A stretch of DNA of 63,276 bases, filler included, from 21 parts of 21 records of this genome joined end to end with filler, not necessarily neighbours in it; one strand, 5' to 3'. Positions 20,160-47,326 are shown, counted from the whole stretch's first letter. Notes: generated by a model not told the origin, from the letters alone. A program made the numbers and translations.

Positions 20160-21548
20160 GATGAGGCTAATCTAATCAATGAGCTTACTAGAAAAGAAGC
20201 GGAGCGTGATAGATTAACAGCACAGAGCAGAAAAATGCAATTAATTGTACGGATCCAGGAACTTGATTTGAACAACAGGCAAACTGCAAGCGAGAATGAC
20301 CTGCTAGTTACCATGAGCCAAGCAAATACGGTTAGGCACGTGCCAAATTTTCCAACGCAACAATACCCATCACACTTAACTAATAGTTATGGCTTAGGTA
20401 CCGACATTCCCAGCACTGTGTTTGATAGGCCCATAAATAGGCCTACGCCGAGTTCTCACCTACTTCCAAGTGGTGTACCTAACACCTATTTTACCGTGGC
20501 GAGCACACATTACATGGGGCTTAATAACTCTTCAATTAGGCCTAGCTATAACTCTGCACCTGTCTTAACAAACGTTCATTATGCAAACGGCCACAGTTCA
20601 GCACCTAATCTCGAACATAGGCCTATCACAGTTGGCGTAGGCAACTGGGATTCTACTGCAAATCTGGCCCGCCCTACTCATGTAAACATGGTTGGGAGCG
20701 CTCATAATCGCCCCACAACTACAAGTAAGGTAGTGCCTAGCATGTATTGCGATCACTCTCAGAGTCCTAGTATCTCGCTAAACACAAACTCTCACTACAC
20801 AAATGTGCTGCCGGGTGCGGGTGACCAATCTGAGCCGGAAATACCAGCGCTTCACACCATCCGAGCTAACCATGGCAATCAGGCAGATAATTGGCTAAAA
20901 GATCTCCTCCAGCATAATGTTCAATTGGGCGCAGACAATCAAGGTAATCTCAAAACTTACAAAATAAAATCAGGGTCCGAAACTACAGGTAAAGACTCGA
21001 TACAGAAAGTTATTAGGTGGCCGCACAAAGAGGTCAAAGATTTAGGAAGTTTCTCAAATATTAAGTTCAAGGAAATAAACACATTTCAGTTAGTTGCTGG
21101 TGAATTAGAGATTATATCTGATGTCAAATTTCCAGTCTCTCAGAAAGAGGTTGACGGGAGACTCTCTTTGTTAAAAGACACAATGTATTACTCCCAAATT
21201 CACGGCTTTGATCAGGCAAGAGAATACTACCGTAAGGTTTGTGTAAGAATTGAGGAAGGCAAATCAGACTGGGGCGACAATTTCGACTCTGTCGCCAAAT
21301 GGACTTTTGCCACACCCCAATACGTACACAGGCCTCATACATTATTAACGAATCAGGACAATAACCCTAGTACTAGTATCCTACCCAATAGTCCAGGTAA
21401 CATTTGTAGATTTTATAATAGTGTGCATAGATGTCGATATGAAAAGTCTGGTAAATGTCGCAAAATGCATATTTGCGCAAAGTGTGCTGAAGTCGGAAAC
21501 GTGGGATCACACTCCGCAGTTTCCAATGATTGCACTCAAAATAGTTGA
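20160..21548 (+). CDS. gag: Gag-like ORF1 of a tyrosine-recombinase (Ngaro/DIRS-group) retrotransposon, 5' truncated
   Basis: KIKSG...RWPH, FQLVAGELEII, C-terminal CRFYN...C......C...HIC..C......H.....C zinc finger; clearly homologous to 39731-40933. Confidence 0.8.
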   Translation, partial: DEANLINELTRKEAERDRLTAQSRKMQLIVRIQELDLNNRQTASENDLLVTMSQANTVRHVPNFPTQQYPSHLTNSYGLGTDIPSTVFDRPINRPTPSSHLLPSGVPNTYFTVASTHYMGLNNSSIRPSYNSAPVLTNVHYANGHSSAPNLEHRPITVGVGNWDSTANLARPTHVNMVGSAHNRPTTTSKVVPSMYCDHSQSPSISLNTNSHYTNVLPGAGDQSEPEIPALHTIRANHGNQADNWLKDLLQHNVQLGADNQGNLKTYKIKSGSETTGKDSIQKVIRWPHKEVKDLGSFSNIKFKEINTFQLVAGELEIISDVKFPVSQKEVDGRLSLLKDTMYYSQIHGFDQAREYYRKVCVRIEEGKSDWGDNFDSVAKWTFATPQYVHRPHTLLTNQDNNPSTSILPNSPGNICRFYNSVHRCRYEKSGKCRKMHICAKCAEVGNVGSHSAVSNDCTQNS

Positions 21549-22306
21549 CTACTTGTGCGTAACTCATCCACTGTAGTACCCGAATACGCCAATGGAACAA
21601 TTAATTGTATTCCCGCTCACGATTTGTCCCCTACACGTAAATTAACATACCGGTACTGCAATCGAAGCGTTAGCTTGCCCCCGCTTACTCCTGTGAATAA
21701 ATGTTCACCGAGTGAGCCAAATACTGTGCAGCCACTGTTTACGCACGCACAATTGCCACAGAGGGTCAAGCCGGCGAGACCTAAACGCACCATTGTTCCT
21801 AACACATTGCGAACAGAGAGCGCAATATTGCAAGCTAGTAGTTCACAGGCTCATGTACAATTTTCGGGACCTGCATGTAATAAACCTGATCCAACTAATT
21901 CCCACCAGTTCAGCAAAACTAGCTATGCCCTTGGTATGTTTGCTGGCCTGGTATGCTTCATAATTGCTATACTATGTGTTGCATATTCGTGCTCATCAAG
22001 CACAAATGGCAACACACTGTCACACGATTTTAGACTTATGCATAGCAAAATATACGCCTCCGGCACATACAACTATGTAAACTGTCGCATACCTCTGCAG
22101 ACAACACTGAATGTCAGGCGCTGGAAACAATTACTAACTAACTACGAAGATAAGGAAATTGTTAACTTTATTGAGTTTGGTTGGCCTATAGGATATACAT
22201 CTGAAGACCTACCAGTTTCAATATACAAAAACCACTCATCCGCCCTGCAGTTCGCGACAGATGTTGATAATTACATAGCAAAAGAGCTCCAACTTGGCGC
22301 ACTGCT
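21549..22306 (+). CDS. pol: N-terminal part of YR-retrotransposon pol (linker, hydrophobic helix, RT N-terminus), in frame with gag
   Basis: SGTYNY.NCRIPL, WKQLL, FIEFGWPIGY, NHSSA, YIAKEL.LGAL match the RT N-terminus of the pol at 40934-43003. Confidence 0.8.
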
Positions 22307-22407
22307 NNNNNNNNNNNNNNNNNNNNNNNNNNNNNNNNNNNNNNNNNNNNTTAATTAATTAANNNNNNNNNNNNNNNNNNNNNNNNNNNNNNNNNNNNNN
22401 NNNNNNT

Positions 22408-22578
22408 AATAAGTTCACTGAAGATGGAAGACCTATTTGCAATTATTGTTCTAAAGTGGGACATAAGTTTCTAGAGTGCAGGGCAAGAAAGAGGACGTTT
22501 AGAAACCAGGGTGAGAGTAGAAATCCTCCTCTATCACGTTCATCTTACAGTCAGACTAGCTCAAACGGAAGTTGGTGA
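22408..22578 (+). CDS. gag: Ty3/Gypsy gag C-terminus with CCHC zinc knuckle (not in the ORF track)
   Basis: Hand translation NKFTEDGRPICNYCSKVGHKFLECRARK...SNGSW*, in the same frame as the following pol. Confidence 0.8.
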   Translation, partial: NKFTEDGRPICNYCSKVGHKFLECRARKRTFRNQGESRNPPLSRSSYSQTSSNGSW

Positions 22579-22590
22579 AGGGATGCAGCA

Positions 22591-24560
22591 ATGAAGGCTA
22601 ATAAAGAGGCTACTGAGGTTGCCCCACCTATAGATATCACGCAAATAGAAGCTAGGCTTACTGCTCCCTTATGTTCTGTACAGATAGGTAAACAGCAAGT
22701 TAATGCTTTAGTTGATTCAGGAGCAGGAGCTACTATTATTTCTGAAGTTGTATATAGGAATATACCAAAACCGAATAAAACGAAACTACGATATTTTGAT
22801 GCAACTAATTTAGTTTCAGTTACCGGACAAAGTCTACTTGTAGTGGGTGAAAGTAATGTAAATATGAAAATAGGTAGAAAGGAGATAAAACACCCATGCA
22901 TAGTAGTGAAAAACTTGCACAGGCCTATGATATTAGGGTATGACATGATGGATAAACATAAAATGCAGTTAGATTGCCATAAAAGACTACTAAAAATCGG
23001 TACTGAACTCATACCTTTACAGGCTAAAGAGACACAGACCGAGGCCATAGTGACGGTAAAAACAGACTGTAAAATACCACCTAATAGTGAAGTACATTGT
23101 TGGGGAGTGCTTAACACTAAAGTCAGAGCTGGCAGACAGGTGCTTGTCTCCGCCATCGATATTGCTCCAGCTATATCGAACCAGCCTGGCTTTGTGATTC
23201 CTAACACTCTTAACCACACGTCGATTGTGGATGGTAAACCAGTGGTTGCTCTAACAATGATAAACACCACTGACCATCCCATGAAGGTTAAAAGAGGCCA
23301 ACCAATCTGTTATGCGGAAATGTTGGACTCAGCTGAAATACAGGGTATAAAAACAGACCCCAAAGAAGTATTAGGCATTTATGAAGTGGCATATGACACT
23401 AATACAGATAACACCAGGTCAAATGGCTCACCTGACCTAACATCACGCGAGCCGAAGGTTAACCTGGATCACGTGCATCCAAGCCAAAAGTCGCAATTGA
23501 AGGGACTAATTGGAGAATACAATGATATATTTGCAGAAAAGGACACTGAACTAGGCTGCACCAACGTGGTGGAAATGACCATTCCAACCGGAGAAGCTAG
23601 ACCTATTAAACAACGACCATACAGGGTACCATTTAACCAACGACATGTCATCGATGAACATGTCGCTGCCATGTTGGAATCGGGAGTTATCAGCCCTAGC
23701 ACTAGCGCTTGGTCAAGCCCTGTGGTACTGGTTCCGAAAAAGGACGGGACTAAGAGATTTTGTATTGACTTTCGGAAGCTCAACTCGGTAACGGAGCACG
23801 ATGCACACCCCTTACCAGTGATAGACGACATCTTGTCTAGTCTAGGTAAGGCACGTTATTTTACCATACTCGATTTACGCTCAGGATATTGGCAAGTACT
23901 TTTGGCACAAGAAGATAGGCCCAAAACAGCTTTTTGCACCTATCGGGGACTGTACGAGTTTAATGTTCTACCCTTTGGCCTTCAAGGCGGACCTGCAATT
24001 TTCCAGAGAGTCATGAACTATGTCTTGGAGGGCCTACAACATCGATGTGCCATGCCATACTTGGATGATATCGTGATATTCTCGGAATCATTCCAAGAAC
24101 ACCTACAGCACCTAGATGAAGTGTTCCATCGATTACGACAAGCTGGTCTCAAGTTGAAAGCCTCCAAATGCGAATTCTTGAAGAATGAAGTAAACTATCT
24201 AGGCCACGTCGTAACACCAGACGGTATTAAACCTGATCCTAAGAAGGTGGAGGTGATACAACAACTCCAGCCACCGAAAACGGTAAAACAAGTTAGGAGC
24301 TTTGTGGGAATGACGTCATATTACCGGAAGTTCATCAAAGATTACGCCATTATTGCCAAGCCTTTGACAAAACTTACGGGAGCCTATGTTAGATTTGAGT
24401 GGGATGAGGATGCTCAAAAAGCATTTGAGACGCTCAAAGAAAAACTAATAAGTGCTCCAATACTGGCGTACCCGGACCCGAATAAACCATACCGACTATA
24501 TACTGATGCATCCACACATGCGGTAGGAGCAGTTTTGTCTCAGGGGAGCGAGGACGGAGA
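22591..24560 (+). CDS. pol: Ty3/Gypsy pol: aspartic protease, RT, start of RNase H (3' truncated)
   Basis: ALVDSGA, ILGYD, RFCIDFRKLN, LDLRSGYWQ, LPFGL, YLDD, YLGH, LYTDAS. Confidence 0.93.
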
Positions 24561-24964
24561 NNNNNNNNNNNNNNNNNNNNNNNNNNNNNNNNNNNNNNNN
24601 NNNNTTAATTAATTAANNNNNNNNNNNNNNNNNNNNNNNNNNNNNNNNNNNNNNNNNNNNGTTTTGTTCTTATTTATATTTTTAGTTTCAATCTTAATAA
24701 AGAAGCATTTAAACCATTGTCTGCCTCCAGTACAGTTTTTTGTGACCGTCTCCCGTCGTAACATCATTGAAACTTCTGCCAGCAAAGATGTGTTGTTCCT
24801 TCAAAACAGATGACTCAACATGGACAGCAACAGACTAGCATCACTCAGAGACAGTATTATTCTGCGTGATATTATAGCCGTTCATTGTTAGCCTATGTCT
24901 TGCAGTTGTACGTTAGTGGTTTATCAGAATTGTTGAACTGTGGAAATAAAAAACAGTAGACAAA

Positions 24965-27900
24965 ATGTCTGATACTAGTGATAAAGTGAAAAATGTTAAT
25001 GTGACAGACACTGTTAATGGTATTGGTAATGTTAATTTACATACTCCAAATATTGATAATCGAAATAGTATCCAAACCCTTAGGGGTAGTAGAAAAGCAC
25101 ATGCAGGTCACCTAACACGTGCTATTGATAAAGCATATGAATTAATTGCTACCGGTAGTAGTAATGCATCCAGTAACGATGTTCAATTTATCCGTACAAA
25201 GATTACTGAACAATATGATGCAATAGATAAATGTTGTTTACAGTTAAAAGACAATTTGACAGAAGAAGCCGAATTATGTGAGCTTAAACGTTACTCAGAC
25301 GATAAGTCAGTTGAATGCCGTCGTGTGTTGATTGCATTAGATAATTATAATATGTCACTTAGGCAGGCAGGTAACGCATCACAGTTAGGTCGTCCTGGTC
25401 TTAATCAGAACGGTCAAGACGACGTCCATGCAGGCGACTCCGTTAGCCAAGTTTCGGTGAAGACAGTCAGCTCAGCAACCAAGTTGAGGATGGAAGCCGA
25501 GGAGATCCGGCTGCAGTTGCAGCAGATGGAAAGGCTGCAACAGTTAGAGAAACAACGGCTCCAAATTAAGCAGGAGGAAGATAAAATACGGATAGAGACG
25601 AAGTTGAAGATTGCTGAGCAAAGGGCTTTGCTAGCAGATCAATTGTCAGAGCACCGGTCAGTGGGTCATCGGTCAGCAAGTCCAGTGCAGTCTCTCAGTG
25701 GTCTACACTTCAGTCAAAGATCATTCCCACGACCGGTAATTCCAGTCCAGTCATCATCAAGTGATATTGAAGAAGCCCTCAAAGGTGTATCGAATGCTAT
25801 CAGGAAAGGATTCATGCTTCCCCCGGCAGTCATCTCTCCTTTTAAAGGAGACCCTATAGATTATCCACGCTTCCAATGTACTTTCGCTACAGTAGAGGGC
25901 AAGTGCGTGGACGCTCAAGAGAAGTTGAATTACTTACTACAGTACACAGAGGGCCCTGCCAGATCGCTCATCAATGACTGTGTTATGCTTAGTCCTGAGC
26001 AAGGTTTGAACAAAGCAAAGAATCTTCTGCGTGAACGTTATGGGACTCCATACATAGTTGCTCGGAGTTACCTAGACACGCTGACTACCGGACCAGAATT
26101 GAAGATTGGTGATAGCAAAGCAATCCAGGAATTTGCTGATACATTGCGTGATTGTCAGGATACATTAAACCGTATGGGATATATGTCTGATGCTAATGCA
26201 TGTGATACGCTTAGGAAGATCGTTTCTCGCTTTCCACCACAATGGAGAGGTCAATTCCTTTCATACTGCGAAAAACTTGATGATCGCACGGTTGACGAAA
26301 GTGATGGTAGTATTAACGAAGTTGCCTTTAAAGATGTTGTTTCGTTTGTAGTCAAGCGTGCTAGGTCATGTAATCATCCAGTCTTTGGTAATTTGTTTGA
26401 TAGATCACAGAATCGTAGTGACAACAGAGGTCATAGAGCGGGTGAAAGCAATCGTAGTACATATAAACCATGGGAAACGAGCCGCAGTATTCCCCGGTTT
26501 TCCGCAAATGCGTCCGAGATGTCACTTCCTGAATGCTTTTTGTGTTCAAGACCACATAGTCTTAGTGACTGTGAACAATTTACATCACAGAGTCCTAATC
26601 AACGTTTCGACATCGCGTTCAGAGAGAATTTGTGTATCAATTGCTTGATGCCGAATCATATAACAAGGAACTGTCCTAGCGTAAATCAATGCAATAAGGT
26701 TGGTTGTAAAACGCGTACTAAACATAATGTTCTGCTACATCCACTCCCACAGCGTTTTGGAGTCTCCCGTAGGTCAAACAGTGAACAGACGACCACGACT
26801 TCGACACTGTCAGATGGAGCCGGGAAGTCAGCAGTTGTACAGTCAGACGGAGCCGGGAGACCAACATCCGTACCAGTAGCATTGCAGAAATCCAGCATGC
26901 AGAATGTGCCACCTGTCAGTGATTCTAGTGAGAACTGTACTGCCACACAAGAATCAGGTGGAGCATTTATGCAGGTAGTTCCAGTCAAAGTTTGGTCAGA
27001 AGGTAGCAACCGTTCGGTGTCAACACTGGCATTGATTGACACTGCATCTACTATTTGTTTGTGCGACCAGTCACTGGTTGACCAGCTCGGAATACAGGGT
27101 GTTCCACAGGAAGTGTCTTTAGCAACTGTCTCAGGTACAGATAGAAGACAGGTACATCGAGTTAGTCTCGAAATCCGAGGTGCTCAGGAATCTGAAGTTG
27201 TTGATCTTCCGGATGTGAAAGCAGTCAATAATCTTAACATCAAATATACTCGTCGACCGTCTCGTGTTGAATTGAACCAATACAGTCACCTCAGAGATAT
27301 TCCGTTTGGTGAACATAAAGGTGAGATTCTACTGCTGATAGGGACAACAGTGCCAAAGTGTTTTGTTGCTAAAGAAATCAGCATTGGAGAAAAAGACACC
27401 ATGCCTATCGCGGTAAAGGGTCCACTGGGATGGTCTGTACTCGGTGGCTGTGGGGACATGGCAACTTCATTAGTGAATTGTACGTCAACAGTCGAAGATG
27501 TCCTGATGAAACAAGTGAAACGTTTCTGGGAACAAGATATGGAAGGAACTGTACGTGACCAGAAGGTAGGCATGTCAGTTGAGGACAGAAAGGCACTGCA
27601 GGTGATGGAGTCTTCAGCAGTATTAAAGAATGGACACTATCAGATGAAGCTTCCGTTTCGAACTGAGTGTCCAGTTCTTCCTAACAATAGATTCCAGGCT
27701 GAGCAGAGGTTCCATTCACTAGTAAAGCGCTTTGTACGTGACCCAAGCTGGTACAAGATGTACAAGGCTGCTATTCAAGAGTATCTCGACTGTGGGTATG
27801 CAGAAAAGGTTCCCAAACCGGAAATGAAGGCAAATGGTGCAGTGAAATATGGTAGAAAGTGGTATCTACCACATCATGGCGTTACACATGAAGCCAAGCC

Positions 27901-28263
27901 AGGACGTGTAAGGTCGGTCTTTGATTGCGCTGCAGAATACGATGGTACGTCACTAAATAAAACCATTCTGCAAGGCCCGGATCTGACGAGTAGATTATTC
28001 GATGTACTGCTTCGTTTCCGAGTGGAGATTGTTGCTCTTTTCGGCGACGTTAAGGCAATGTTTAGCCAGGTGAAGCTCTATTCAGAACACTGTGACTACA
28101 TGAGATTTCTTTGGTTTGAAGATGATGACATCACCAAACCTCCAGTAGACTTCCGTATGACTGTACATCCATTTGGTTGTATATCATCTCCTTCTTGTGC
28201 AGCATATGCCTTGCAGAGAACATGTAGAGACAATGCATCCAGCTATGAACCCGCGGTAATAGA
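24965..28263 (+). CDS. BEL/Pao gag-pol polyprotein (3' truncated)
   Basis: DUF1759-like FKGDPIDY...KLNYL; triple Cys/His knuckles (CFLC...H....C, CINC....H....C, C....C....H...LH); protease ALIDTAS; Pao RT motifs YLPHH, VFDCAA, GPDL, DVKAMF, HPFG. Confidence 0.92.
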
Positions 28264-29474: not shown

Positions 29475-29539
29475 CAGCAGCTAACCTCAAGCAGAGGAAG
29501 TCAAGTCATGTAAATACTAGTGTAGAAAAGTCTGTATAT

Positions 29540-32048: not shown

Positions 32049-33893
32049 ATGGGAGGTGCAGGGCCTGTTTCTATTGATTGCGCAGCTATGCTGAATGTTG
32101 ACAATGCGAAAACTGTTGCAAACGGCGTTACTAGCAAGACATACGCTACAATGGTAAAGAAGACTGATACTTCCTTTGCGCATACAGATAGATATAAAGC
32201 AGTTTACATTAGCCTAACCAGTGATGATGAAAGAACAATTCCGCTGCATGTCTATATAAACACTGTAGCAAGCAAAGTAGGCGCAGAGAATATTACTCAT
32301 ACAGCCAAAAGAGGTGGCAAACTTTTTGTTTATTTCACATCTGTTCATTCAGTAGATATTATCACAAGCTCTGGTATAACTGTGAATGATAAATTTAAAG
32401 ATGTACACCGTGCTCAGAGCATATATTCTAGTGTAATTGCCTCGGATGTTTTCCCAGATATTCCTGACTGTGCAATAACTTATATATTTGAAGATCTTGG
32501 TCTTAAAGTTCATAGAATAATACCAGTACCCTGCGGTTTCAAAGACCCCAAATTGAGACATATTATGAGCTTTCGCCGGGAAATCAAGTTTTCTGCCCCT
32601 GGGAGGGATGCATTTAGGCGTATACCACAAGATATGATAGTAAGCTATGGAGAAAATCGCAGTCATAAGATATACCTGTCAGAGCCTGGTAATCCACTCT
32701 GTTTCTTCTGCCATCAGTACGGCCATATCCAGGCTCATTGTATGGAGAAGATGCATCGAATGGAAAACAGACGCCAACACAGAAACCCTGTAAACTTGAT
32801 TCCTTTGGCCAATAAATCACCTTTGGATGACAACAGTGAACAACAACAGATATTACATGTACAGACGGGTAATAAGGAAGGCGCACCCAGCTCACCGAGA
32901 GATACTAATGCAGTTAAAAACACTATTGCGGAAATACGCCAGCTAAAAGCTAATCCTCCAAAGGTAACTACAGTTGCACGAAGCAATAGTGAAGGAAGCC
33001 TACCAAAAAAGGACAAAAGAGAAGCGAGCAAAAATGGTGCTTTCCAAAATGCCACAGCGAGTAAAAAGGGGCAAGAACAAGACGACGGTTTTACATTAGC
33101 AGGTAAAAAGAAAAGGAAAAAAGCAGGCGACAATACCAGCCTAAGCCAAAATACACAGCCAAAACACAGCTATAACTTATACAGTGTACTTGATGAAGTA
33201 ACTGCCTCTTCGGAGTCGGAAAAGTCGGGGAACCCTATAAGGAAGAAATTTTTAAAACAGGCACGAAAATTAAGGAAGCTAGGTATCAGCACGTCAAGTG
33301 AGGAAGCTAACACTAGCAAATCAGCAGACAACATGGACACTAGTTTGTCACGTGCCTTGGATTTCAATGACTCTGTGCTGAATGAACCTGATGTAGAGGC
33401 AATGGTTATAGATGAGGCCGACAAGGGTAATAATGAAAGGCAAAACGCAAAGAAAGGTAGCAGCGTTGCCATTACATCTGAATTTACTCCGAGTCAAACA
33501 GGTGCATGTAACATAGAAGAGCTACCTGACGAAGGGGAAAGAGTCAGTACACAAGATATTAACTCACTGACGGCAGAGGATGAAATGGATGGCATGCCAT
33601 TAACTAATGAGCAAATCCGTCTACTTTTGCAAGAAACAAAATACAAGAAGAGGGATGAGTGCCTACGAATTGCAAACAAGTATAGCAATGATGTCCCTGG
33701 AATATTGGAACAACTGGAGAAGATAGAATCCTGCGGAAAAATCAAACAAGTTACGGCAGTAGTGAACTCCCCAAAATATAGGGCGATCAGCCGTACACGA
33801 AAACAGATAAGCAGTCTAGGAAAGAGATTACGTGGGTCTCTAGGGCAAGAAGAGGATATTTGCTCGGCTGAGCAGAGCGGCGTCAGACCTTGA
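32049..33893 (+). CDS. L1/Tx1-clade ORF1 with CCHC zinc knuckle (frame open from 31728)
   Basis: TYATMVK; RRM-like region; LRHIMSFRR, typical of Tx1-like ORF1; CFFCHQYGHIQAHC. First in-frame ATGs at 32049 and 32088. Confidence 0.75.
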   Translation: MGGAGPVSIDCAAMLNVDNAKTVANGVTSKTYATMVKKTDTSFAHTDRYKAVYISLTSDDERTIPLHVYINTVASKVGAENITHTAKRGGKLFVYFTSVHSVDIITSSGITVNDKFKDVHRAQSIYSSVIASDVFPDIPDCAITYIFEDLGLKVHRIIPVPCGFKDPKLRHIMSFRREIKFSAPGRDAFRRIPQDMIVSYGENRSHKIYLSEPGNPLCFFCHQYGHIQAHCMEKMHRMENRRQHRNPVNLIPLANKSPLDDNSEQQQILHVQTGNKEGAPSSPRDTNAVKNTIAEIRQLKANPPKVTTVARSNSEGSLPKKDKREASKNGAFQNATASKKGQEQDDGFTLAGKKKRKKAGDNTSLSQNTQPKHSYNLYSVLDEVTASSESEKSGNPIRKKFLKQARKLRKLGISTSSEEANTSKSADNMDTSLSRALDFNDSVLNEPDVEAMVIDEADKGNNERQNAKKGSSVAITSEFTPSQTGACNIEELPDEGERVSTQDINSLTAEDEMDGMPLTNEQIRLLLQETKYKKRDECLRIANKYSNDVPGILEQLEKIESCGKIKQVTAVVNSPKYRAISRTRKQISSLGKRLRGSLGQEEDICSAEQSGVRP

Positions 33894-37668: not shown

Positions 37669-39528
37669 ATGAATTCACACTCATTTTACCGGCCTCCTCA
37701 GACTACTAGGCATTTGAGGTACTTTGTCTCTCAAGCTATCCCTGATGATGGCAATGTCAGTGAAGATGAACAATTTGAAAATGATAGTGAAGAAGGTGAT
37801 ATAGATGAAGACAGGGACAGTGACCGTGATTCTTCATCCGATTCTGATTCTGAAGCAGGTGACCATGGTAACGGTGACATGGGTGAGATGGATATTGATC
37901 ATGACACTGTTGAGCAGACAATCAACAGGGTTGCTGATGGTGCTGGTGACATTCCGATAAATCAGCCAGTTGACGAAATGCCGGAATGGAGTTCGGACAA
38001 TATCCGGGGTAATAAACCATTTCCAGAATTTCAAGGCGAACATGGCCCAAGCGTCATTCTAGATGAAAATGCAAGCCCTATAGACTTTTTAGACTTGACG
38101 TTTCCATTATCTTTATGGCGCATGATACTTTCAGAGACTGTGAGATATGGAGATTCAAGGCCGACATCAAAGCTCGGTGACTTGACTTTACAAGAATTGA
38201 AAGCATTCGTTGGGATAATGCTTGCGATGGGAATACATAAACTTCCAAGAATGCGAAACTACTGGGAAGCTCACTGGGTGTTGAAGGTTCCGCAGTTTGC
38301 TCAAGTATTTCCCCGTGACCGCTTCGAAGCTATTTGGCGTGATTTGCATTGCTGCAACAATGACAATGCTTTGCCGAGAGAGCACCCCGATCACGATAAA
38401 CTATTCAAAGTGCGGAAGATAATTACAACTTTGAACAGGACATTTCAAGAATGTTTTTCGCTCGGTCAAGCTGCATCAGTCGATGAGAGCATGGTTCGGT
38501 TCAAAGGGCGTTCGTCGATGAAAATGTTCATGCCAATGAAACCCATCAAAAGGGGCTTCAAAGTGTGGGGAGTTAGTTGTCCTTGTTGTGCGTACCTGTA
38601 CAAATTTCAAGTGTACACTGGAGCTGTGATCGGTGAAACGGAAATTGGCCTCGGTCACCGAGTGGTGCGTGATTTAGCATTGCCTGAAATGTCAGGCAAG
38701 AACCACATTGTCTGTTGTGACAATTTTTTCACATGTTTGCCACTCATACGTGAATTGCGCGAAAATGACATATTTCTTGTCGGCACATTCCGTTTTCGGC
38801 TGAAAGGAATGCCGAAGGAATTTGACAAAAAATTGCCGGCCGTAAAGAAACTGGCAAGAGGACAGTCAATGTTCCGTTGTCATCCGGACAGAGAAACTGT
38901 GGCGTATGTTTGGAAGGATTCTAAACCAGTGCATGTTATGTCAAACATACACAATCCGGATACTGTTTCGCATGCAATGCGGCGGCTGAAGGATGGCACG
39001 CGGCAGGAGTTTACATGTCCAGAGGCACTTACATTTTATTCCGCGAGCATGGGTGGCGTTGACCTGCTGGATTTCAAAAAGGCGAGTTATGGATTTAACA
39101 GGAAGTCAAAGCGGTGGTGGTTTAGACTCTTCTGGCACTTTGTTGATTTGGCTGTGGTGAATGCACATATTTTGTACACTTGCAGCTACAAACACAACTG
39201 GCACCCGCCACGTAAATACGCCCCATTGGACCAGCTGCGCTTCCGATGCCAACTCATCGATCAGTTAGTGAATCATTTCACAGCTCGGAAAGAACGCGGG
39301 GCACCTGTGAACACCCCACTTGTGGCCACAATTTCTAGTGGCCATGACATGATCGATATCCGTACTGTTCGACTGGACAACAATGAACTCATGAAGTCCG
39401 GGCGCTGTCAACACTGCAGCACATATCGAATACGGAAAGAAACGCAGTTCGGTTGCCCAAAGTGCAAAGTGCGTCTCTGCCCAAACCAGTGCTGGGTAGC
39501 ATTCCATCGGGCTCTCCTCCCACAGTGA
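37669..39528 (+). CDS. piggyBac transposase (PGBD4-like), intact ORF (alternative start 37612)
   Basis: Acidic N-terminus; SVDESM, KPIKRGFK, CDNFF, MGGVDLLD, KRWW; C-terminal CQHC...CPKC...LC...CW..FH. Confidence 0.92.
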   Translation: MNSHSFYRPPQTTRHLRYFVSQAIPDDGNVSEDEQFENDSEEGDIDEDRDSDRDSSSDSDSEAGDHGNGDMGEMDIDHDTVEQTINRVADGAGDIPINQPVDEMPEWSSDNIRGNKPFPEFQGEHGPSVILDENASPIDFLDLTFPLSLWRMILSETVRYGDSRPTSKLGDLTLQELKAFVGIMLAMGIHKLPRMRNYWEAHWVLKVPQFAQVFPRDRFEAIWRDLHCCNNDNALPREHPDHDKLFKVRKIITTLNRTFQECFSLGQAASVDESMVRFKGRSSMKMFMPMKPIKRGFKVWGVSCPCCAYLYKFQVYTGAVIGETEIGLGHRVVRDLALPEMSGKNHIVCCDNFFTCLPLIRELRENDIFLVGTFRFRLKGMPKEFDKKLPAVKKLARGQSMFRCHPDRETVAYVWKDSKPVHVMSNIHNPDTVSHAMRRLKDGTRQEFTCPEALTFYSASMGGVDLLDFKKASYGFNRKSKRWWFRLFWHFVDLAVVNAHILYTCSYKHNWHPPRKYAPLDQLRFRCQLIDQLVNHFTARKERGAPVNTPLVATISSGHDMIDIRTVRLDNNELMKSGRCQHCSTYRIRKETQFGCPKCKVRLCPNQCWVAFHRALLPQ

Positions 39529-39730
39529 GGGTAAGTATAGATAAATTGTAAAATGCATGTTTACACCATTAGGCCTGTAAGAATGTGACCTGTACAGTCT
39601 GTCACCTCTACCGGTATAATAGTAAANNNNNNNNNNNNNNNNNNNNNNNNNNNNNNNNNNNNNNNNNNNNTTAATTAATTAANNNNNNNNNNNNNNNNNN
39701 NNNNNNNNNNNNNNNNNNNNNNNNNNTAAA

Positions 39731-40933
39731 ATGTCTTCCAGTAGCTTTTCTGCTGGCGTTACTTCCACGTTAGCTATGCCCCAAGACCCACTGTCTTATG
39801 CGGAACCGCTTAGACCGGTAACAAGCGCCGGGTGCTACACAAGCAATGTGCCTAGCTACACAGTTACGCCACCAGTGGATAGTACTCAACTGCAGAATAA
39901 CACGCGCCCTATGTATCAAAACCTTTATGTAAACCAACCACCGATTGTAAGATCGCTACCTTTGCCAGCATCTGTAACCTATACCATTCCTACCTGCAGT
40001 CACTCACATTTACCGGCTACTGCCACCTTAGTGCCTGACAGGCCTAGTCTATCGTCGTTAGTTAGTATGACAGGCCACTTAGCGGGTGGGTATGTGCCTG
40101 GGGCTTGTCTACAAGCGACAACTGGTCACTTGGAGCCCATTCCGTCTAACTATGCTGTTGGCACCCTTCCCGGGCCTACTGCTGCCCACGATGCGGACAT
40201 ACCATCAATGCAGGCTATTAAGGCAAAGTGTGGTAATGAAGCTGATGCTTGGCTACAGGATATTCTAAGACACAATGTCCAAGTAGGCGCCGATAGCCAA
40301 GGTAACTTTAAAACCTTCAAATTAAAATCGGGTTCAGAAACAACTGGCAAAGACCAAATTGTCAAAATTCTAAGGTGGCCTCACAAGGAGGTTAAAGATA
40401 TAGGTACTACAACTAATATGAAATTTAAAGACATTAGTATGTTTCAGTTAGTAGCTGGTGAGTTGGAAATTATTACAGATAATAAATTCCCTGTATCACA
40501 GCTGGAAATTTCCGGCAGACTAGAGCTGTTAAAAGAAACCATGTATTATTCCATGCTGCACGGGTTCGAACCTGCGCGAGAGTACTACAGAAAATCTTGT
40601 GTACGCATAGAAGAGGGCAAATCAGAGTGGGGTGATAGTTTTGACACAGTGGCCAAATGGACATTCACAACCCCGCAGCAAACACTGGGTAAAGACGTAC
40701 CAAAAGCCCGTACAAATGTTCCCGGTTATGCCAGCGGCCCTACAGCTTTGCAGAGTAACTATTCAAATACTGTATGCAAATTTTACAACAGCGTACAAAA
40801 GTGTAGGTATGAAAAGTCGGGCGACTGTAGAAAAATGCATATATGCAGTACCTGCGCCACTTCGGGAAAAGTGTCATTCCACTCGGCCTGCTCTAATGAT
40901 TGTACAAGACAACTGTTGTCACAAAATAGTTGA
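39731..40933 (+). CDS. gag: Gag-like ORF1 of a YR (Ngaro-like) retrotransposon, probably 5' truncated
   Basis: KLKSG...RWPH, FQLVAGELEII, CKFYN...C......C...HIC..C......H.....C. Confidence 0.82.
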   Translation: MSSSSFSAGVTSTLAMPQDPLSYAEPLRPVTSAGCYTSNVPSYTVTPPVDSTQLQNNTRPMYQNLYVNQPPIVRSLPLPASVTYTIPTCSHSHLPATATLVPDRPSLSSLVSMTGHLAGGYVPGACLQATTGHLEPIPSNYAVGTLPGPTAAHDADIPSMQAIKAKCGNEADAWLQDILRHNVQVGADSQGNFKTFKLKSGSETTGKDQIVKILRWPHKEVKDIGTTTNMKFKDISMFQLVAGELEIITDNKFPVSQLEISGRLELLKETMYYSMLHGFEPAREYYRKSCVRIEEGKSEWGDSFDTVAKWTFTTPQQTLGKDVPKARTNVPGYASGPTALQSNYSNTVCKFYNSVQKCRYEKSGDCRKMHICSTCATSGKVSFHSACSNDCTRQLLSQNS

Positions 40934-43003
40934 CTAAGTAAAGCACGTGTTCGGAACCCTCGGCCTTTTACGAAACCAACATGTAAACGTGGCCAGGCTA
41001 CTAATATTACACAACCTTCTTTTGTCGAAGGCTCTATGCAGCCACCAGTATTTAATCACATTCAGTTGCCACAAAGACCAAAACGCCAGACGCGCTTACG
41101 ACTTCAACCTGCACCTGCTGCTAACACCCAGTTTCAGACTGCCGCGCCTGCTTCACTGATTATGGATCAGGAAGAGAGCAGTTTGCCAGTGCCGAAATTA
41201 CCCCGCGCATCTGACATTTTAGAAAAAGTCGTATTACAGTTCCCAGGTATTGGGTGCGAAACAACGGGCCAGCGCACTAACGATTACAATTCTCAGCCTA
41301 ACTTTAGGCAGTCGTTGACGTCGTTTGCGGCACAGCTCATTGCAATATCAGTTATACTAATTTCTACGCTGTACAGTATCGGAGGCGATAGACTGCATTT
41401 GTCCGGTGCAATGTCAGTTAATGATTTACATTCGACCATATTTGGCTCAGGGTTTTATAACTTTGAACACTGCCGCATACCGCTGCACACCAACCTCCAT
41501 ATCCAGCGATGGAAGGAATTATTAATTAATTACCATGACAGGGATATAGTAAAGCACCTCGAATACGGTTGGCCTGTAGGTTACACGTTAAATGAACCGC
41601 CGGTTTCTGTGCTTAAGAATCATACTTCGTCCATAAATTACGAATATGCTGTTGACGAATACATAGCTAAAGAATTACATTTAGGCGCCCTGTGCGGACC
41701 ATTTGATAAAAATCCCTTGAACACACCTCTTAGGATATCCCCGCTGCAGACGGTTAGCAAAAAATCTAGCAGTCCTTGTTTGTTGCCGGCGAGAAGGATC
41801 GTGGTTGATTTGTCATTCCCACCCGGGAAATCTGTTAACGACGGCGTGCCTAAAGAAACTTACCTCGGGAGCTCAATTAAGCTTACTTACCCAACAGTAG
41901 ACGCATTTAGTGAACTAATAATTAGACACGGAAAAGGGTCCCTTATGTTTAAGCGCGATCTTAAGCGTGCATACAGACAATTTCGGATAGACCCGCATGA
42001 TTTACACCTTCAAGGCTTTATGTGGCGCAATAAGATTTTTATAGATTTAGCGCTAATGTTCGGGTCCCGGATGTCAGCCATGGCTTGTCAACGCATTACA
42101 AATGCAATAACTTTTATGCTCTCTCAGGCGGGCCATAGCAACGTGTTGAACTATGTCGATGATTTCTTTGGCGTGAATACACCTTATAAGGCACAAGAAG
42201 CTTACGCCAAATTGAGCGATTTACTTAATGAACTAGGCCTCGAGGAGTCTGTTGAAAAAGCGCAGCCTCCCTGCACACGCATTGAGGTGTTAGGTGTTTG
42301 GTTTGACACTATTAAAATGACACGCGAAGTTACAAAAGAAAGACTGGCCGAGTTGAAAAGTCTAACTGAAACGTGGCTGCAGAAGCGAAAAGGCACAAAA
42401 CGCGAGTTGCAAAGTTTATTAGGAAAACTGATGTTTGTATCTAACTGCGTAAGGCCATCCAGGGTATTTACTGCGAGGCTCTTGAACAAGTTGAAATCGT
42501 TAAATAGAAACTCTCATCACTTTCGATGCAATGAAGAATTCAAACGCGATATAGTTTGGTGGAACAAGTTTCTTCACCAATATAATGGTGTTTCTCTTAT
42601 CCCTGGCGAAAATTGGTCAGATCCGGATGACGTTTTTCAGAGTGATAGCTGCCTTACAGGCTGCGGTGCTGTGTATAATGACGAGGCATTTCATTGCGAA
42701 TTTCCTGAGAGTATCAGGGCTCTTGGCCTATGCATAAATTCTCTGGAGTTGCTTGCAATTATAGTTGCAATTAAACTTTGGGGCCACAAATGGCGTGGAA
42801 AGCAAATCATAATTAATTGTGACAACCAGGTGTCCGTGCATGTAATAAACTCGGGCAAGTCGAACACTACCTTCTTGCAAAAATGCGCGAGGGAAATTAT
42901 CTACTATCAATCTGTATACAATTTTGAGTTGCATGCATCTCATCTCCCCGGCTGCGAAAATCGCGCGGCCGACGCTCTCAGCAGGTATCATATTGATAAA
43001 AAA
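40934..43003 (+). CDS. pol: YR-retrotransposon pol (RT + RNase H), in frame with gag, 3' truncated
   Basis: No stop between the gag TGA and ATG 41036. RT motifs RIVVDLSFP, DLKRAYRQ, LMFG, YVDD, LGV. RNase H motifs SDSC, ELLA, CDN, N..ADALSR. Confidence 0.9.
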
Positions 43004-43199
43004 NNNNNNNNNNNNNNNNNNNNNNNNNNNNNNNNNNNNNNNNNNNNTTAATTAATTAANNNNNNNNNNNNNNNNNNNNNNNNNNNNNNNNNNNNNNNNN
43101 NNNCTGTATGTAGCTATGAAGACCGCAAACCGCCAAAACAAACGGCCAAAAGAAAGAAGATTTGTAATTTCACTGGTAATTTCGTCTTAATATTATAGT

Positions 43200-44204
43200 T
43201 CAACCCGAAAGTTTCAATATGCCTGAACGCATTTTGGTAGTAGCTGAGAAGATTGTTTCGAACGACATGTCTATATATGCTTTATAGCACTCTGACCGCC
43301 AATCCCCCAATCGTTGTATAAGATCGGCAGGAATCCCACAGTTATAGGCCCATGACGCGGCACCACGGCGGAAGGAATGACCAGTGTAAGATTCATGAAT
43401 GTCAGCCTCATGTAAACACTTCCGTAAGAATGTATTGAAAGAAGAATGCGTGATAGGCCTAAACGCAGTCCCCTCTGGTATGACAAACGCAGGCGATCTA
43501 TTATCTACGTTTATCAAAGCACACATGCGTTTAAAGGCAGCTAATGGACATAATGCAGAGCCTGTCATCTCAGGAATCGCAACGTGAACTATCCTACTGA
43601 AATACTGATTAGTTTTCGAATACTTAAATGATACCAATAACCCTGACGAACAACTATTCAAATCACCCCTAGTCAAATGCTTGGCACTGTCAAATTTCGA
43701 TTTAACCGGTGGGACCATGGACGATTTGCGGGACATCGTAAAAAAGGTTATTACAAATAAGCACCAGTAAGCTGCGTGTACAGGATCTGACATATCTAAT
43801 GTTTTAAAAATCCGCAACAGCACTTCAGGCGTGATAGGCAATGCCCTTTTCGCGTTTTTGTTCAAAATTTTACTTAAACCTCTAATGGTGAGTTCCAACT
43901 GGAAACTGTCAAAAGCCGAAATATCAGCTCCACGGATTTTGTGATAAATTTTGACGCTATTCAAATGGTTTTTAATTGTTCCTATTGCACGAACTGATCT
44001 ACTTAAAAACTGGGCGTACAGCTGTAGGGTTTCTGCTGACACTGGACAATACTGGTAGCCATAGAAAATACAAAATATGAAAAACTGTTTAATGTTGGAC
44101 CTAAAATTAGTCCAACTACCTTCGGCATAAGCAGAATCCATAGTTAACTGCAAATCACATAAGAGAGAACGTCTGAACACATCTAAAATTAGCAATAAAT
44201 GCAC
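43200..44204 (-). CDS. Tyrosine recombinase of an Ngaro/DIRS-group retrotransposon
   Basis: Catalytic set R (MSRKS), K (SKTNQ), H-x-x-R (GHSFRRG), GDW, Y (AYI); LCP motif; SAM-like N-terminal domain. Confidence 0.92.
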   Translation of the reverse strand: MHLLLILDVFRRSLLCDLQLTMDSAYAEGSWTNFRSNIKQFFIFCIFYGYQYCPVSAETLQLYAQFLSRSVRAIGTIKNHLNSVKIYHKIRGADISAFDSFQLELTIRGLSKILNKNAKRALPITPEVLLRIFKTLDMSDPVHAAYWCLFVITFFTMSRKSSMVPPVKSKFDSAKHLTRGDLNSCSSGLLVSFKYSKTNQYFSRIVHVAIPEMTGSALCPLAAFKRMCALINVDNRSPAFVIPEGTAFRPITHSSFNTFLRKCLHEADIHESYTGHSFRRGAASWAYNCGIPADLIQRLGDWRSECYKAYIDMSFETIFSATTKMRSGILKLSG

Positions 44205-44344
44205 CCACTAACTAATTAAGTTAAATATAGCCTTAAGAAGCCAGTGAGCATTAAATAACATTATGTACATTTACAGCCAGGACATTACACCTCGACCTCA
44301 AAATGGCCTTGTGCTAGTTGGGCATAAGAACATGATATGCAACT

Positions 44345-46648
44345 TTACAAAGTATGCGATATGTTAAACTTACTCTGAGTGACAAATATCTCGTTCAGAT
44401 TAAACCGCCTAGTAAGCTCAAAAAACTGAACCCTATTTTCCGCCGATTTATGCCATCTGGACAACAGGTCAGCAAGTCTATTATCCTGAGATGATACATG
44501 TTGCGCGCGAACTTCACACTCGTATAAAGCGCACAAATAATATAGCTCGCGCATCCAATCCAACAAAACCGCATTTTTAGCTTTCCCAGAATTGATTACT
44601 GTAACCACCGCCATATTATCGCATAAAATAGTGCAGCGACGGCCTTTCCAAGCGCTGGCCCATAGCTTAATGGCAATCACACACGCTATTAACTCAAGAA
44701 TCGCAATACTATAATTCATATTAAGAACACTTTCTGGAAACGTGCAATGAAAGTACTGGCCCTCACTGAACGCTCCGCACGCATCTAAACAAGCATCACT
44801 TGACATTATCTGGTCCGGCTTTGACCAATGCTCATAATTAATTATGGAAACACCATTGTAATGCTTAACATATGCAAGCCACCATACAATATCTTTTCTA
44901 AACTCAGTGTCCAAATATATCCTGTGGTGCGGTTTCTTAACGCCATTTAATTTGCATAATAATCTTGCCATAAAAAGCCTGCTTTGGCGCACACACTTAC
45001 CAACAAACATAAGTTTGCCTATCAGCACCTGAAGCTGTCGTTGCGTACACCTTTTCCTGTTAATCCAACATTCAAGAATAACACTCGCCTCTTCTATTCG
45101 CTCAGGAGTGGTGCTAGCAATCATTTGCTCAGAATTTAGTGAAATACCTAACACGACAGCTTCATGTGCTGGTAGGACATCCTTACGCTCGTTAGCAGCG
45201 AGGCCCAATTCTAATAGCAATATTTTAAGACAAGCAAATGCCTCCTGTGCCTGCTTATAGCTACTTTCGATACCCACAATGTCATCTATGTAATTTTCAC
45301 AAGTAAAACCGCGCTGCCACATAATATAACACACCGCATCTGTGATACGTTGCAAAAACATGCAAGACGAGCGCATGCCCATGGGTAGCACAACATCGAA
45401 AAATAGGTCACTACGCCAACGATAACCCAAAAGATGCACGTCTCTGGGATCTACCGGTATTTGCCTGAAACTTCGAGATAAATCAATTTTCCAAATATAG
45501 CACCCTGTACCCTTAATCACTACTATATCCACAAAATCTTGGAAAGTAGGCAAAGTTAGTTTATACCGTTGGCCCAGATAGATGTCCTTTGGAATACCGT
45601 TATTTACAGAGCGATTTGCACCGGCTGCACTCAAATCTAAAATAACGCGGCGTTTATTATCACTTTTTGGTACTGTATTTAGCGGCGAAATTACGGAATT
45701 AATAATAAACGGGTTGCTAGAAAAGGGGCCGATTACCGCGCCCTCTGTTAATTCATCTGCTATATAAGTATCCACTTCTAATGAGAAGTCGCTAGCACCC
45801 TTATAATTAGCATGACTGCTGTTTTCGGGCAAAAATTGGTAGCTGAAGCCTACCGGACAACCGAATTCCAGAAATTCGCAAATTTCATTGTCATAATATG
45901 AATACTGGTGCAATAAGGCGCGCCACCTACGTGGGTGCAATTTTGTCTGCAGAGTCTGCCGCATGCATAGATAATTAGGCTTGCCAGACCGCAAAACTGC
46001 ATTAGCTATCTCCACATAAGATTCAGGAGCTGGACTACCTAAAACTGGCAGGAATAAACCATTAGCATAAAATTCCTTGTAATTAGGGTCTTGCATAGTC
46101 TCTAGAATTTCAAAGCTAGCTCGTTTTTTTGACACAGCGGGACCGGGCCGAGGTGCATATTCCTGGCTGAAAATTACATCTGGATCATAACACTTTGTAC
46201 CACTCGTGTCACCAGGACTCACAAAATTATCACTATACAATGGTAGAACAGCACAATTAAGACTGGACTGCTTTGCAAAGTGGCAACCGCTGCTAGCAGT
46301 GAACCTGCAATCATTGATCACAAAATTATTTTCACTGCTCTTTAAATTGTAAACAAGTAATGAATTACCCATTAAAAATAATACAAACATTAAAGCATTA
46401 ATTAGAACATACAGCTTTATACAAGTAACCGCCTTATTGACCTTATTATCCATATCACAGATATTGGGCTCAGCCGTAACAGGATTAATTTGTGCACGAC
46501 TATCCGAGCTACATGTATCGGGGGCTGCGGCAACATTTTCAGAACTAGAAATTTCTATCGGCCTACAGCAACTCTTAGAGTTGCTGGGAAAACACTTTTC
46601 ATCAGTGACTTTTCTAGCATTTTGGTCTATTTTAACATCTAGGCCTAG
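44345..46648 (-). CDS. pol: YR-retrotransposon pol (RT + RNase H, no methyltransferase), in frame with gag; first ATG 46453
   Basis: FLEFGCPVGF, RVILDLS, DLSRSFRQ, LPMG, YIDD, SDAC, ELIA, CDN, NRLADLLSR; 65 open codons between the gag TGA and ATG 46453. Confidence 0.9.
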   Translation of the reverse strand, partial: LGLDVKIDQNARKVTDEKCFPSNSKSCCRPIEISSSENVAAAPDTCSSDSRAQINPVTAEPNICDMDNKVNKAVTCIKLYVLINALMFVLFLMGNSLLVYNLKSSENNFVINDCRFTASSGCHFAKQSSLNCAVLPLYSDNFVSPGDTSGTKCYDPDVIFSQEYAPRPGPAVSKKRASFEILETMQDPNYKEFYANGLFLPVLGSPAPESYVEIANAVLRSGKPNYLCMRQTLQTKLHPRRWRALLHQYSYYDNEICEFLEFGCPVGFSYQFLPENSSHANYKGASDFSLEVDTYIADELTEGAVIGPFSSNPFIINSVISPLNTVPKSDNKRRVILDLSAAGANRSVNNGIPKDIYLGQRYKLTLPTFQDFVDIVVIKGTGCYIWKIDLSRSFRQIPVDPRDVHLLGYRWRSDLFFDVVLPMGMRSSCMFLQRITDAVCYIMWQRGFTCENYIDDIVGIESSYKQAQEAFACLKILLLELGLAANERKDVLPAHEAVVLGISLNSEQMIASTTPERIEEASVILECWINRKRCTQRQLQVLIGKLMFVGKCVRQSRLFMARLLCKLNGVKKPHHRIYLDTEFRKDIVWWLAYVKHYNGVSIINYEHWSKPDQIMSSDACLDACGAFSEGQYFHCTFPESVLNMNYSIAILELIACVIAIKLWASAWKGRRCTILCDNMAVVTVINSGKAKNAVLLDWMRELYYLCALYECEVRAQHVSSQDNRLADLLSRWHKSAENRVQFFELTRRFNLNEIFVTQSKFNISHTL

Positions 46649-47326
46649 TCAACTACTGGCCTCCTTAGATAGCTTGAATGGACATAAATCAGAGGTTTCA
46701 TTATGCCAGGCCTTTTCGTGTGTATTACGGAAACACAGGCGACATATGTGCAAAACCTGACGTGAAACACCACCTATCAGCTGAGCATGACTTTTAGAAT
46801 TAACTACACACTGATTTTTTTGAAAGTTGCTGCACCAGAATACCCTTTCTTCATCATACCTTTTAAAACTTGGTTGCCTAGGCTGACTTTCCATCCGCTG
46901 TTTACCAATCGAGCCCAGCAGAATCGCATTCTCAATGTCAAGGAAATCCTCAGACCAAGTTTTTCTGCCTGTCTCAACTGCGTAAACAACGGATTTATGC
47001 AAGTCTAGCACAACCTTCCATGAATGTGTCTGTGCATAATGCATTAGCTTACCAAGATGACTAATACGAGCTTCTCTCTCAACACTAGGAATGTCAGACT
47101 GCAAAATATTCATATAACCGGACACAAATTGTGCCATGCTGAGATCAAAGTATGACACATTTTTATCTTGTAAATGTAGAAACTGGTGCGGATAATACTG
47201 TTGACATTTCACAATATCGAAACTTTTAAGAGATATACCAGATCTGAGTCTAGAAGAATTTGCATCAGGTAAACAATCACTGTTATGTTTAGAAAAATTA
47301 TCAAATAAAGGCCTACACGTACCCGG
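46649..47326 (-). CDS. gag: Gag-like ORF1 C-terminal part of a YR retrotransposon (frame open to the fragment edge)
   Basis: Upstream extension reads RLRSGISLKSFDIVKCQQYYPH, homologous to KIKSG...WPH of the other two gags; C-terminal CSNFQ...C...HICRLC.......H......CP. Confidence 0.8.
   Translation of the reverse strand, partial: PGTCRPLFDNFSKHNSDCLPDANSSRLRSGISLKSFDIVKCQQYYPHQFLHLQDKNVSYFDLSMAQFVSGYMNILQSDIPSVEREARISHLGKLMHYAQTHSWKVVLDLHKSVVYAVETGRKTWSEDFLDIENAILLGSIGKQRMESQPRQPSFKRYDEERVFWCSNFQKNQCVVNSKSHAQLIGGVSRQVLHICRLCFRNTHEKAWHNETSDLCPFKLSKEASS

Follow-up and report, generated by a model that had tools for sequence, protein, structure and literature searches.

The stretch of DNA analyzed here (63,276 bases, hereafter the window) carries three retrotransposons with the architecture of Ngaro-like tyrosine-recombinase (YR) elements, here called elements 1, 2 and 3, in which the gag open reading frame (ORF) ends in the codons AGT-TGA-CTA and the pol frame, encoding reverse transcriptase and RNase H (RT/RH), continues in register behind that single stop. 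The context of the stop is conserved at the nucleotide level, and the arrangement is best explained, with what we regard as reasonable probability, by production of a Gag-RT/RH fusion through programmed UGA readthrough. By this mechanism, most ribosomes would stop at UGA-CUA, giving Gag, and a minority would insert an amino acid at the UGA and translate onward in the same frame, across a poorly conserved linker and into RT/RNase H, so that a Gag-linker-RT/RH fusion would be made at a fixed low ratio to Gag, as is the case for gammaretroviral Gag-Pol. The three elements lie on three separate, truncated contigs and are not genomic neighbors; their main features are as follows.

20159-22306, plus strand: contig 7, carrying element 1, delimited by the spacer map and translation and cut by contig ends on both sides
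20160-21545, plus strand: element 1 gag, followed by the stop and by the start of pol up to 22304
21537-21551, plus strand: element 1 junction, CAA AAT AGT TGA CTA, with TGA at 21546-21548 and C as the next base (21552)
20115-22358, plus strand: element 1 open frame with TGA read as X
39727-43003, plus strand: contig 14, carrying element 2, cut at the 3' end
39731-40930, plus strand: element 2 gag from its ATG (39731), followed by TGA (40931-40933) and by linker and RT/RH (40934-43003)
40922-40936, plus strand: element 2 junction, CAA AAT AGT TGA CTA, with A as the next base (40937)
39683-43051, plus strand: element 2 open frame with TGA read as X
43104-47328, minus strand: contig 15, carrying element 3, with gag cut at its 5' end
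46652-47326, minus strand: element 3 gag, followed by TGA (46649-46651) and by linker and RT/RH (44348-46648), which end in TAA
46643-46657, minus strand: element 3 junction, AGT AGT TGA CTA GGC, in which UGA-CUAGGC is the 9-mer reported for OPRL1
44345-47380, minus strand: element 3 open frame with TGA read as X
43203-44207, minus strand: element 3 tyrosine recombinase ORF, ending in TGA-A (Pfam PF00589, 1.6e-8)

Direct observations are the anatomy of these sequences, the conserved context of the stop, the frame that stays open behind it, and arrangements homologous to these in relatives. The coordinates and sequences of the three junctions are exactly those put forward in a first-pass annotation of the window, which had also called attention to a 10-mer, TAGTTGACTA, identical in the three elements. 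This 10-mer has three exact matches in the window, each at a gag stop, against an expectation of 0.09, and at least three matches were obtained in 0 of 100 shuffles. When the TGA is read as X, each element becomes one open frame with exactly one TGA, and RT/RH, where the contig reaches it, is in the gag frame, as had been claimed. A search of all 21 contigs in six frames for single in-frame stops joining two long ORFs returned only four cases, namely the three elements and one antisense pair in contig 5. The position of the stop within the protein is also constant, in that it falls 4-10 codons past the last Cys of a C-terminal Cys/His cluster in elements 1-3 and in a relative, L003, introduced below. 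The 10-mer (21542-21551, 40927-40936 and 46646-46655) happens to be an imperfect palindrome, TAGT-TG-ACTA, with 4-nucleotide (nt) arms, a property that is probably incidental to AGT-TGA-CTA.

TGA also ends 4 of the 9 other long ORFs in the window, with C at position +4 in only one of these nine ORF ends, and it ends the YR ORF of element 3, there with A at +4, indicating that TGA is a normal stop in this organism. These data bear on whether the gag UGA could be decoded in some other way, that is, as selenocysteine, after A-to-I editing of UGA to UGG, or in a genetic code in which UGA is sense. UGA does encode selenocysteine, and certain lineages read it as Trp; the product would likewise be a Gag-Pol fusion. 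An Rfam search at E up to 1, however, found no selenocysteine insertion sequence (SECIS) and no readthrough element, the only matches being two sub-threshold microRNAs, and the single in-frame TGA per element, together with the use of TGA at other ORF ends, argues against a general sense codon. The A of UGA, with a G on its 5' side, is moreover in a poor ADAR context. We consider alternative decoding of this kind exceedingly improbable.

Is the stop context conserved beyond what descent or chance would give? The junction of elements 1 and 2 is contained in a 15-mer, CAAAATAGTTGACTA, which is the longest exact match between the two in any register and which adjoins a five-codon indel and wholly diverged 3' sequence. 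Across the gag core, third-codon identity between these elements is only ∼0.3-0.6, even where 70-87% of residues are identical, and of 263 residues that are the same in both, 100 also have the same codon; the synonymous sites of the pair approach saturation. Conservation of synonymous sites around the stop, which the first-pass annotation had proposed to look for, is seen in this pair: 15 of 15 nt are identical at the junction, compared with none of the 43 aligned five-codon windows in which all residues are identical. Element 3 keeps T-AGT-TGA-CTA though its gag is just 19% identical to the gag core of element 2.

A coincidental 10-mer, or dead copies in which a nonsense mutation interrupts a once continuous gag-pol ORF, would be another account of these matches. 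Shared 10-mers are in fact common (11-17 maximal exact matches of at least 10 nt per pair with element 3), so that a shared 10-mer alone is unremarkable and it is the position at the homologous stop that exceeds chance; furthermore, a continuous ORF is present in a relative (P0018, below), and all contigs are truncated, which leaves the integrity of the elements only partly visible. Against decay or coincidence, the only in-frame stop is at the same place in four elements, which represent three or more diverged lineages, and it is always TGA followed by CT; no other stop or frameshift occurs over 715-1092 codons. The chance of an AGT-TGA-CTA match, calculated from pooled codons (AGT 2.25%, CTA 1.2%) and with TGA at ∼0.45 of ORF ends, is ∼1e-4. 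Taken together, decay or chance seems very unlikely, and we return to readthrough as the favored explanation.

Relatives of the three elements show how the border between gag and pol is arranged elsewhere in the family. The read-through product of element 2 gave 22,819 HMMER hits at E up to 0.001, of which the best 150 were listed; the best of those listed are 33-50% identical over RT/RH, and two of them, P0018 and P0007, continue into the YR domain. P0018 (1487 residues, an NCBI record) is a single gag-RT/RH-YR ORF that aligns in one stretch over the stop position (query 197-1045, 35% identity), and P0007 is similar; since P0018 is one continuous ORF, a Gag-Pol polypeptide exists in this family. 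Another relative, L003, has a pol 42% identical and is a eukaryote-like contig of 2862 nt from a bacterial assembly. Its gag ends in ...CPHFEH, CAT TGA CTC; pol adjoins it directly in the same frame and lacks Met over its first 146 codons read, a stretch that covers conserved N-terminal pol residues, the first Met being inside the RT domain. A 97% identical copy of this pol in the protein database has been called from a non-ATG start, and P0158, a gag homologue, terminates where L003 gag does (...CPHFGEQ). When the L003 assembly and 54 genomes of its order were searched, a match was obtained in 1 of the 55, namely the L003 contig itself, and its presence in a bacterial metagenome-assembled genome is probably binning contamination.

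A second relative, L001, is a metagenome contig (a 5558-nt circularly collapsed unit with a 44-nt overlap) with a pol that is 37% identical, is in the -1 frame and has a 160-nt overlap with gag. Its features, in its own coordinates, are the following.

3675-5276: L001 gag
5117-5602, continuing at 3-1790: L001 pol
5234-5240: L001 slippery site

The slippery site, A_AAA_AAC in the gag register, is located 12 codons before the gag TAG, and 5 nt past the heptamer begins a stem-loop (-21 kcal/mol, z -1.83); 162 codons of the pol frame, from 5117 to the contig end, are without a Met. The columns that the heptamer occupies in the gag alignment come just after that of the last Cys, which is where the other elements stop. 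The arrangement expected for -1 frameshifting is not seen in the window elements, where pol is in frame 0, and L001 alone among the examined elements combines a -1 frame pol with an X_XXY_YYZ heptamer. L001 is thus a candidate for -1 programmed frameshifting in a YR retrotransposon and for a second recoding route to the same fusion. Another in-frame stop in L001, a single TAA-ATA between RT/RH and YR with an ATG nearby, was considered as a recoding site and judged to be an ordinary stop. As to what relatives would show, the first-pass annotation had counted an out-of-frame pol as refuting: L003, with TGA-CTC and pol in frame, is in line with its expectation, and L001 departs from a strict in-frame rule but fits the broader idea of a conserved Gag-Pol fusion reached by different recoding routes. 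Two gene models, P0103 and P0096, link gag with pol and leave out either the Cys/His cluster or the pol N terminus, in a manner that looks like predictor-made introns placed over the gag/pol stop or frameshift.

The family is thinly represented in the searched collections, and stop contexts are known from few relatives. Scans gave two loci in metagenomes and one in genome contigs, and two scans of viral contigs, a 4-sequence alignment serving for the pattern (30 sequences were too diverged for this), found no relative; one locus, L002, is GC-rich and 24% identical and was set aside. A word-based search with the element 2 gag region among proteins of 600-1911 residues found no fused form, and word-based protein searches as a whole returned only two gag homologues and, for L003 pol, only its 97% copy.

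The stop context places elements 1-3 in a known class of leaky terminators. In the excerpts of a 2026 review that we draw on (PMC13517186), Beier-Grimm type II signals are given as UGACGG or UGACUA, with downstream structure only conditionally required for UGACUA, and the corresponding sequences are UAC UGA CUA in Sindbis virus and AGC UGA CUA in Plautia stali intestine virus. In Loughran et al. 2014 (PMC4132726), likewise as excerpted, UGA-CUA alone gives 1.5% readthrough in HEK-293T cells and UGA-CUAG more, all four efficient genes have UGA-CUAG, 12 nt of downstream sequence suffice, and UGA-CUAGGC, the OPRL1 sequence, gives ∼31%. The statement in the first-pass annotation that UGA-CUA(G) is a leaky context in alphaviruses and in animal genes such as AQP4 and MDH1 agrees with the corresponding parts of these two sources (PMC13517186, PMC4132726). 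UGA followed by CUA is found directly at the gag stop in 3 of 3 window elements.

The likeness to each known system has its limits. At the alphavirus nsP3/nsP4 border (Sindbis virus), as described in the sections consulted, UGA is followed by CUA and an in-frame polymerase is made as a minor fusion product, as is here proposed from sequence; Plautia stali intestine virus shares both UGA-CUA and the Ser-stop-Leu order with our elements. These, however, are RNA viruses, several of them with a stimulating extended 3' stem-loop, a feature for which there is a candidate in element 3 only, and the upstream partner in the present case is a retrotransposon Gag-like protein. The vertebrate UGA-CUAG genes (OPRL1, OPRK1, AQP4, MAPK10 and MDH1) have the same core motif and, as excerpted from PMC4132726, reach maximal readthrough with ∼12 nt and no structure; their extensions, on the same partial reading of the source, are short and C-terminal (13 and ∼28 residues), whereas the polymerase here has ∼700-770 residues, and elements 1 and 2 have CUA-C and CUA-A in place of CUA-G. 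Moloney murine leukemia virus (MoMLV), a gammaretrovirus, has gag and pol in one frame with one stop between them and makes Gag-Pol by readthrough (PMC4178896, in excerpt), but its signal is of type III, UAG-GGA with an H-type pseudoknot at +12, and its fusion is cleaved by the viral protease. The characteristics of type III (UAG, a G-rich codon, a pseudoknot at ∼+12) are absent from our elements, since all four, L003 included, have UGA with C at +4 and share no structure, and no protease domain was detected in elements 1-3 with Pfam, from which it follows that the fusion would probably stay uncleaved.

The stretch after the stop provides a second line of evidence, and the features that it contains are these.

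21549-21725, plus strand: element 1 spacer between the stop and a GTG aligned with the element 2 ATG (59 codons), with 0, 3 and 6 stops in frames 0, +1 and +2 (shuffle probability of being open 0.055)
21927-21983, plus strand: hydrophobic, transmembrane-like segment of element 1, ALGMFAGLVCFIIAILCVA, Kyte-Doolittle 19-residue mean 2.75, with the ATG at 21936 inside it
41324-41380, plus strand: hydrophobic segment in the linker of element 2, FAAQLIAISVILISTLYSI, Kyte-Doolittle 19-residue mean 2.02
46373-46429, minus strand: hydrophobic segment in the linker of element 3, VTCIKLYVLINALMFVLFL, Kyte-Doolittle 19-residue mean 2.26

The spacer from stop to first ATG is 34 codons long in element 2, with no stops in the gag frame and 1 and 3 in the other frames (shuffle probability 0.163), and 65 codons long in element 3, again with none in the gag frame and with 4 and 13 in the others (0.015). 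The joint probability of three open spacers, taken as the product, is 1.3e-4. The stop of element 1 is followed by no in-frame ATG before that at 21936, as the first-pass annotation had it, and the linker peptides that it quoted are present in the translations. Upstream of this ATG is a conserved island, QPLFTHAQLPQR in element 1 and QPPVFNHIQLPQR in element 2, 63-78 codons past the stop, with 0.73 residue identity as compared to 0.33 third-position identity, a pattern which indicates that protein-level selection acts upstream of the first ATG of element 1. The hydrophobic segments (19 residues) lie between the gag stop and the conserved RT N terminus in all three elements; L003 has a very short linker without such a segment.

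Several observations weigh against readthrough, and most of them would suit the alternative that the TGA is an ordinary gag terminator and that pol is expressed separately, either by internal initiation at its first ATG or at a near-cognate GTG or via an RNA that is spliced or sub-genomic, with frame and context inherited without function. First, the conserved island begins directly after the element 2 ATG (codon 35 past the stop), with which a GTG is aligned in element 1, a single transition apart, and the 34-59 codons before this aligned start are poorly conserved and of unequal length. A separate pol start at the aligned ATG/GTG is hence conceivable in elements 1 and 2, and the argument that the linker of element 1 must be translated without an AUG, as the first-pass annotation had it, is softened by the GTG. 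Second, in elements 1 and 3 the first ATG is at or just before the hydrophobic segment, and could start a signal-anchor-like pol, so that the segment could accompany a separately initiated protein. Third, Tca2 of Candida albicans, a Ty1/copia retrotransposon that resembles ours in that gag and pol are separated by an in-frame UGA and differs in being a long terminal repeat (LTR) element with a proposed pseudoknot, offers a precedent: in the parts of the work consulted, a minor internal promoter was detected, and the junction alone did not bring about readthrough in S. cerevisiae. Going by Tca2, a gag-UGA-pol anatomy alone is neither a guarantee of context-driven readthrough nor a proof of it. 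Finally, gene models P0103 and P0096 jump the junction, which may be a predictor artefact.

The RNA and the relatives add points of the same tendency. The 120 nt from each stop were folded, with z-scores against shuffles, in a comparison that covers few, unalignable sequences; no shared 3' structure was found (z 0.11 in element 1, 0.60 in element 2 and 1.02 in L003), and the one structure predicted is the following.

46560-46645, minus strand: predicted extended stem-loop of element 3, starting at +7 from the U of UGA, -27.4 kcal/mol, z -2.53, with 3 of 200 shuffles as good

This stem-loop could be a lineage-specific stimulator. Context without structure may, on the published numbers, give only ∼1-2% readthrough. 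The DNA relatives that cover the junction are L003 and L001 only, and since L003 has UGA-CUC, not CUA, what is common to all four elements (1, 2, 3 and L003) is UGA-CU.

Separate expression of pol has, however, to contend with spacers that are free of stops in the gag frame only (product probability as above), with the run of L003 pol codons that lacks any Met and yet includes conserved N-terminal residues, with nucleotide conservation at the stop greater than in any other five-codon window, and with relatives that appear to reach the same fusion by a continuous ORF or a slippery heptamer. We therefore judge it unlikely, if the most serious of the alternatives. In favor of the Gag-RT/RH fusion by UGA readthrough that the first-pass annotation proposed are the stop context with its type II match, the open spacers, L003 and P0018; the proposal is known from sequence alone, and it is on this footing that we infer that readthrough occurs, how efficient it may be, and that the fusion could be the functional form of RT.

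The classification of the elements is by architecture, not by a tree. In Pfam, the pol of element 2 matches RVT_1 (2.8e-9) and RVT_3 (1.8e-4) and that of element 3 matches RVT_1 (5e-9) and also RVT_3; element 1 ends before the RT core. A tyrosine-recombinase ORF is reached in the element 3 contig only, with HSFRRG and the C-terminal Tyr region in its translation, giving the order gag, RT/RH, YR. Of the YR identity claimed for all three in the first-pass annotation, that of element 3 is thus established by its own ORF, and elements 1 and 2, which end before the YR region, are assigned by gag and RT homology only. Past the stop, the proteins of elements 2 and 3 have 40% identity. Homology among the gag proteins is seen in common blocks such as LVAGELEII and in the C-terminal Cys/His cluster, and identities to the element 2 gag core are 64% (element 1), 19% (element 3), 22% (L003), 25% (P0158), 25% (P0157) and 17% (L001).

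Element 3 pol ends a few dozen residues past the RNase H motif LSRWH, as do L003 and L001, and no methyltransferase domain follows RNase H (by Pfam in element 3 pol, and alike in the translations of L003 and L001). Nor was an aspartic protease or DDE integrase found by Pfam at E up to 0.01 in P0001-P0003, in a scan that clearly identified RVP in a gypsy contig. These traits agree with the literature as far as excerpted, in which Ngaro differs from DIRS1/PAT in having no methyltransferase after RNase H (PMC3266345), YR elements are described without protease and without DDE integrase (PMC3783388), and Ngaro/DIRS-order elements have the order gag, RT/RH, YR without methyltransferase, as here. 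With regard to split direct terminal repeats (A1 ... B1 A2 B2), a repeat search of contig 15 gave no more than a weak pair of 21 nt and an inverted pair in its interior, the contigs being cut inside or just beyond the ORFs. An AlphaFold2 model of gag from a 7-row alignment has a mean predicted local distance difference test score (pLDDT) of 60.9; a helical core at about residues 80-165 is modelled with confidence. Compared with the PDB by Foldseek, this model had 38 matches at E up to 10, of which none had E up to 0.001. We call ORF1 "Gag" on the strength of its position, its homology among the elements and its Cys/His cluster, no match to a capsid-like fold having been found.

The remainder of the window consists of separate animal contigs with mostly transposable elements. 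The window is made up of 21 separate segments of 2.0-6.2 kb each, joined by twenty spacers in which the 12-mer TTAATTAATTAA, a six-frame stop linker, is flanked by paired runs of 44 N (N44-TTAATTAATTAA-N44), for example as listed here.

2893-2992: spacer
20059-20158: spacer
43004-43103: spacer

Because separate contigs have been joined, inferences of neighborhood or nesting between segments are invalid. The longest ORFs of the other segments match, in Pfam, long interspersed nuclear element (LINE)-type endonuclease/RT, piggyBac-type and P-element/THAP-type transposases, gypsy and BEL-like elements and one Ephrin_rec_like repeat protein. Two further TGA codons were seen among them. In the gypsy-like contig 8, an in-frame TGG TGA AGG is located between the gag zinc knuckle (CX2CX4HX4C) and the aspartic protease (TGA at 22576-22578, plus strand); an ATG follows five codons 3' of it and the +4 base is A, which is not a known leaky context, so that it may mark a separate start, a nonsense mutation or another case of recoding. 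In contig 11, a 728-residue ORF without Pfam match ends in TGA-CCT (33891-33893, plus strand), the sole other TGA-C among the long ORF ends of the window, and a LINE-like endonuclease ORF comes next in another frame.

How DIRS-order elements express and package RT is poorly known, and the open literature consulted draws separate ORFs and is silent on the translation of pol. Unlike the arrangement suggested here, the accounts of Ngaro/DIRS-order elements mention, in the portions consulted, no stop-readthrough or frameshift route to Gag-Pol, and we found neither readthrough nor -1 frameshifting between gag and pol described for DIRS, Ngaro, PAT or VIPER in the open literature searched, so that an earlier remark elsewhere may exist. 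The mechanism itself is well known; its use by DIRS-order elements, with the animal-type UGA-CUA(G) context, would be new.

A clade-wide extension, which we put forward tentatively and as somewhat short of probable, is that animal Ngaro-like elements make RT only as a Gag fusion, by recoding just past the Cys/His cluster, with lineages swapping UGA-CUA(G) readthrough, an A_AAA_AAC -1 frameshift and a continuous ORF; the fusion would remain uncleaved, and in the window elements it would contain an internal transmembrane-like helix, hinting at membrane-associated replication complexes. If readthrough at the gag stop is real, DIRS-order elements would come under the same logic of a Gag to Gag-Pol ratio as retroviruses, and the known range of the UGA-CUA(G) signal (alphaviruses, a dicistrovirus, a few vertebrate genes) would come to include mobile elements of invertebrates. 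Readthrough would also account for the way in which gene predictors split these elements or supply them with invented introns (P0103 and P0096), and annotators would have a simple rule, namely to search a few codons past the Gag Cys/His cluster for TGA-CT or for a slippery heptamer. Should the clade-wide reading hold as well, these elements would constitute a natural invertebrate test-bed for UGA-CUA readthrough driven by context only.

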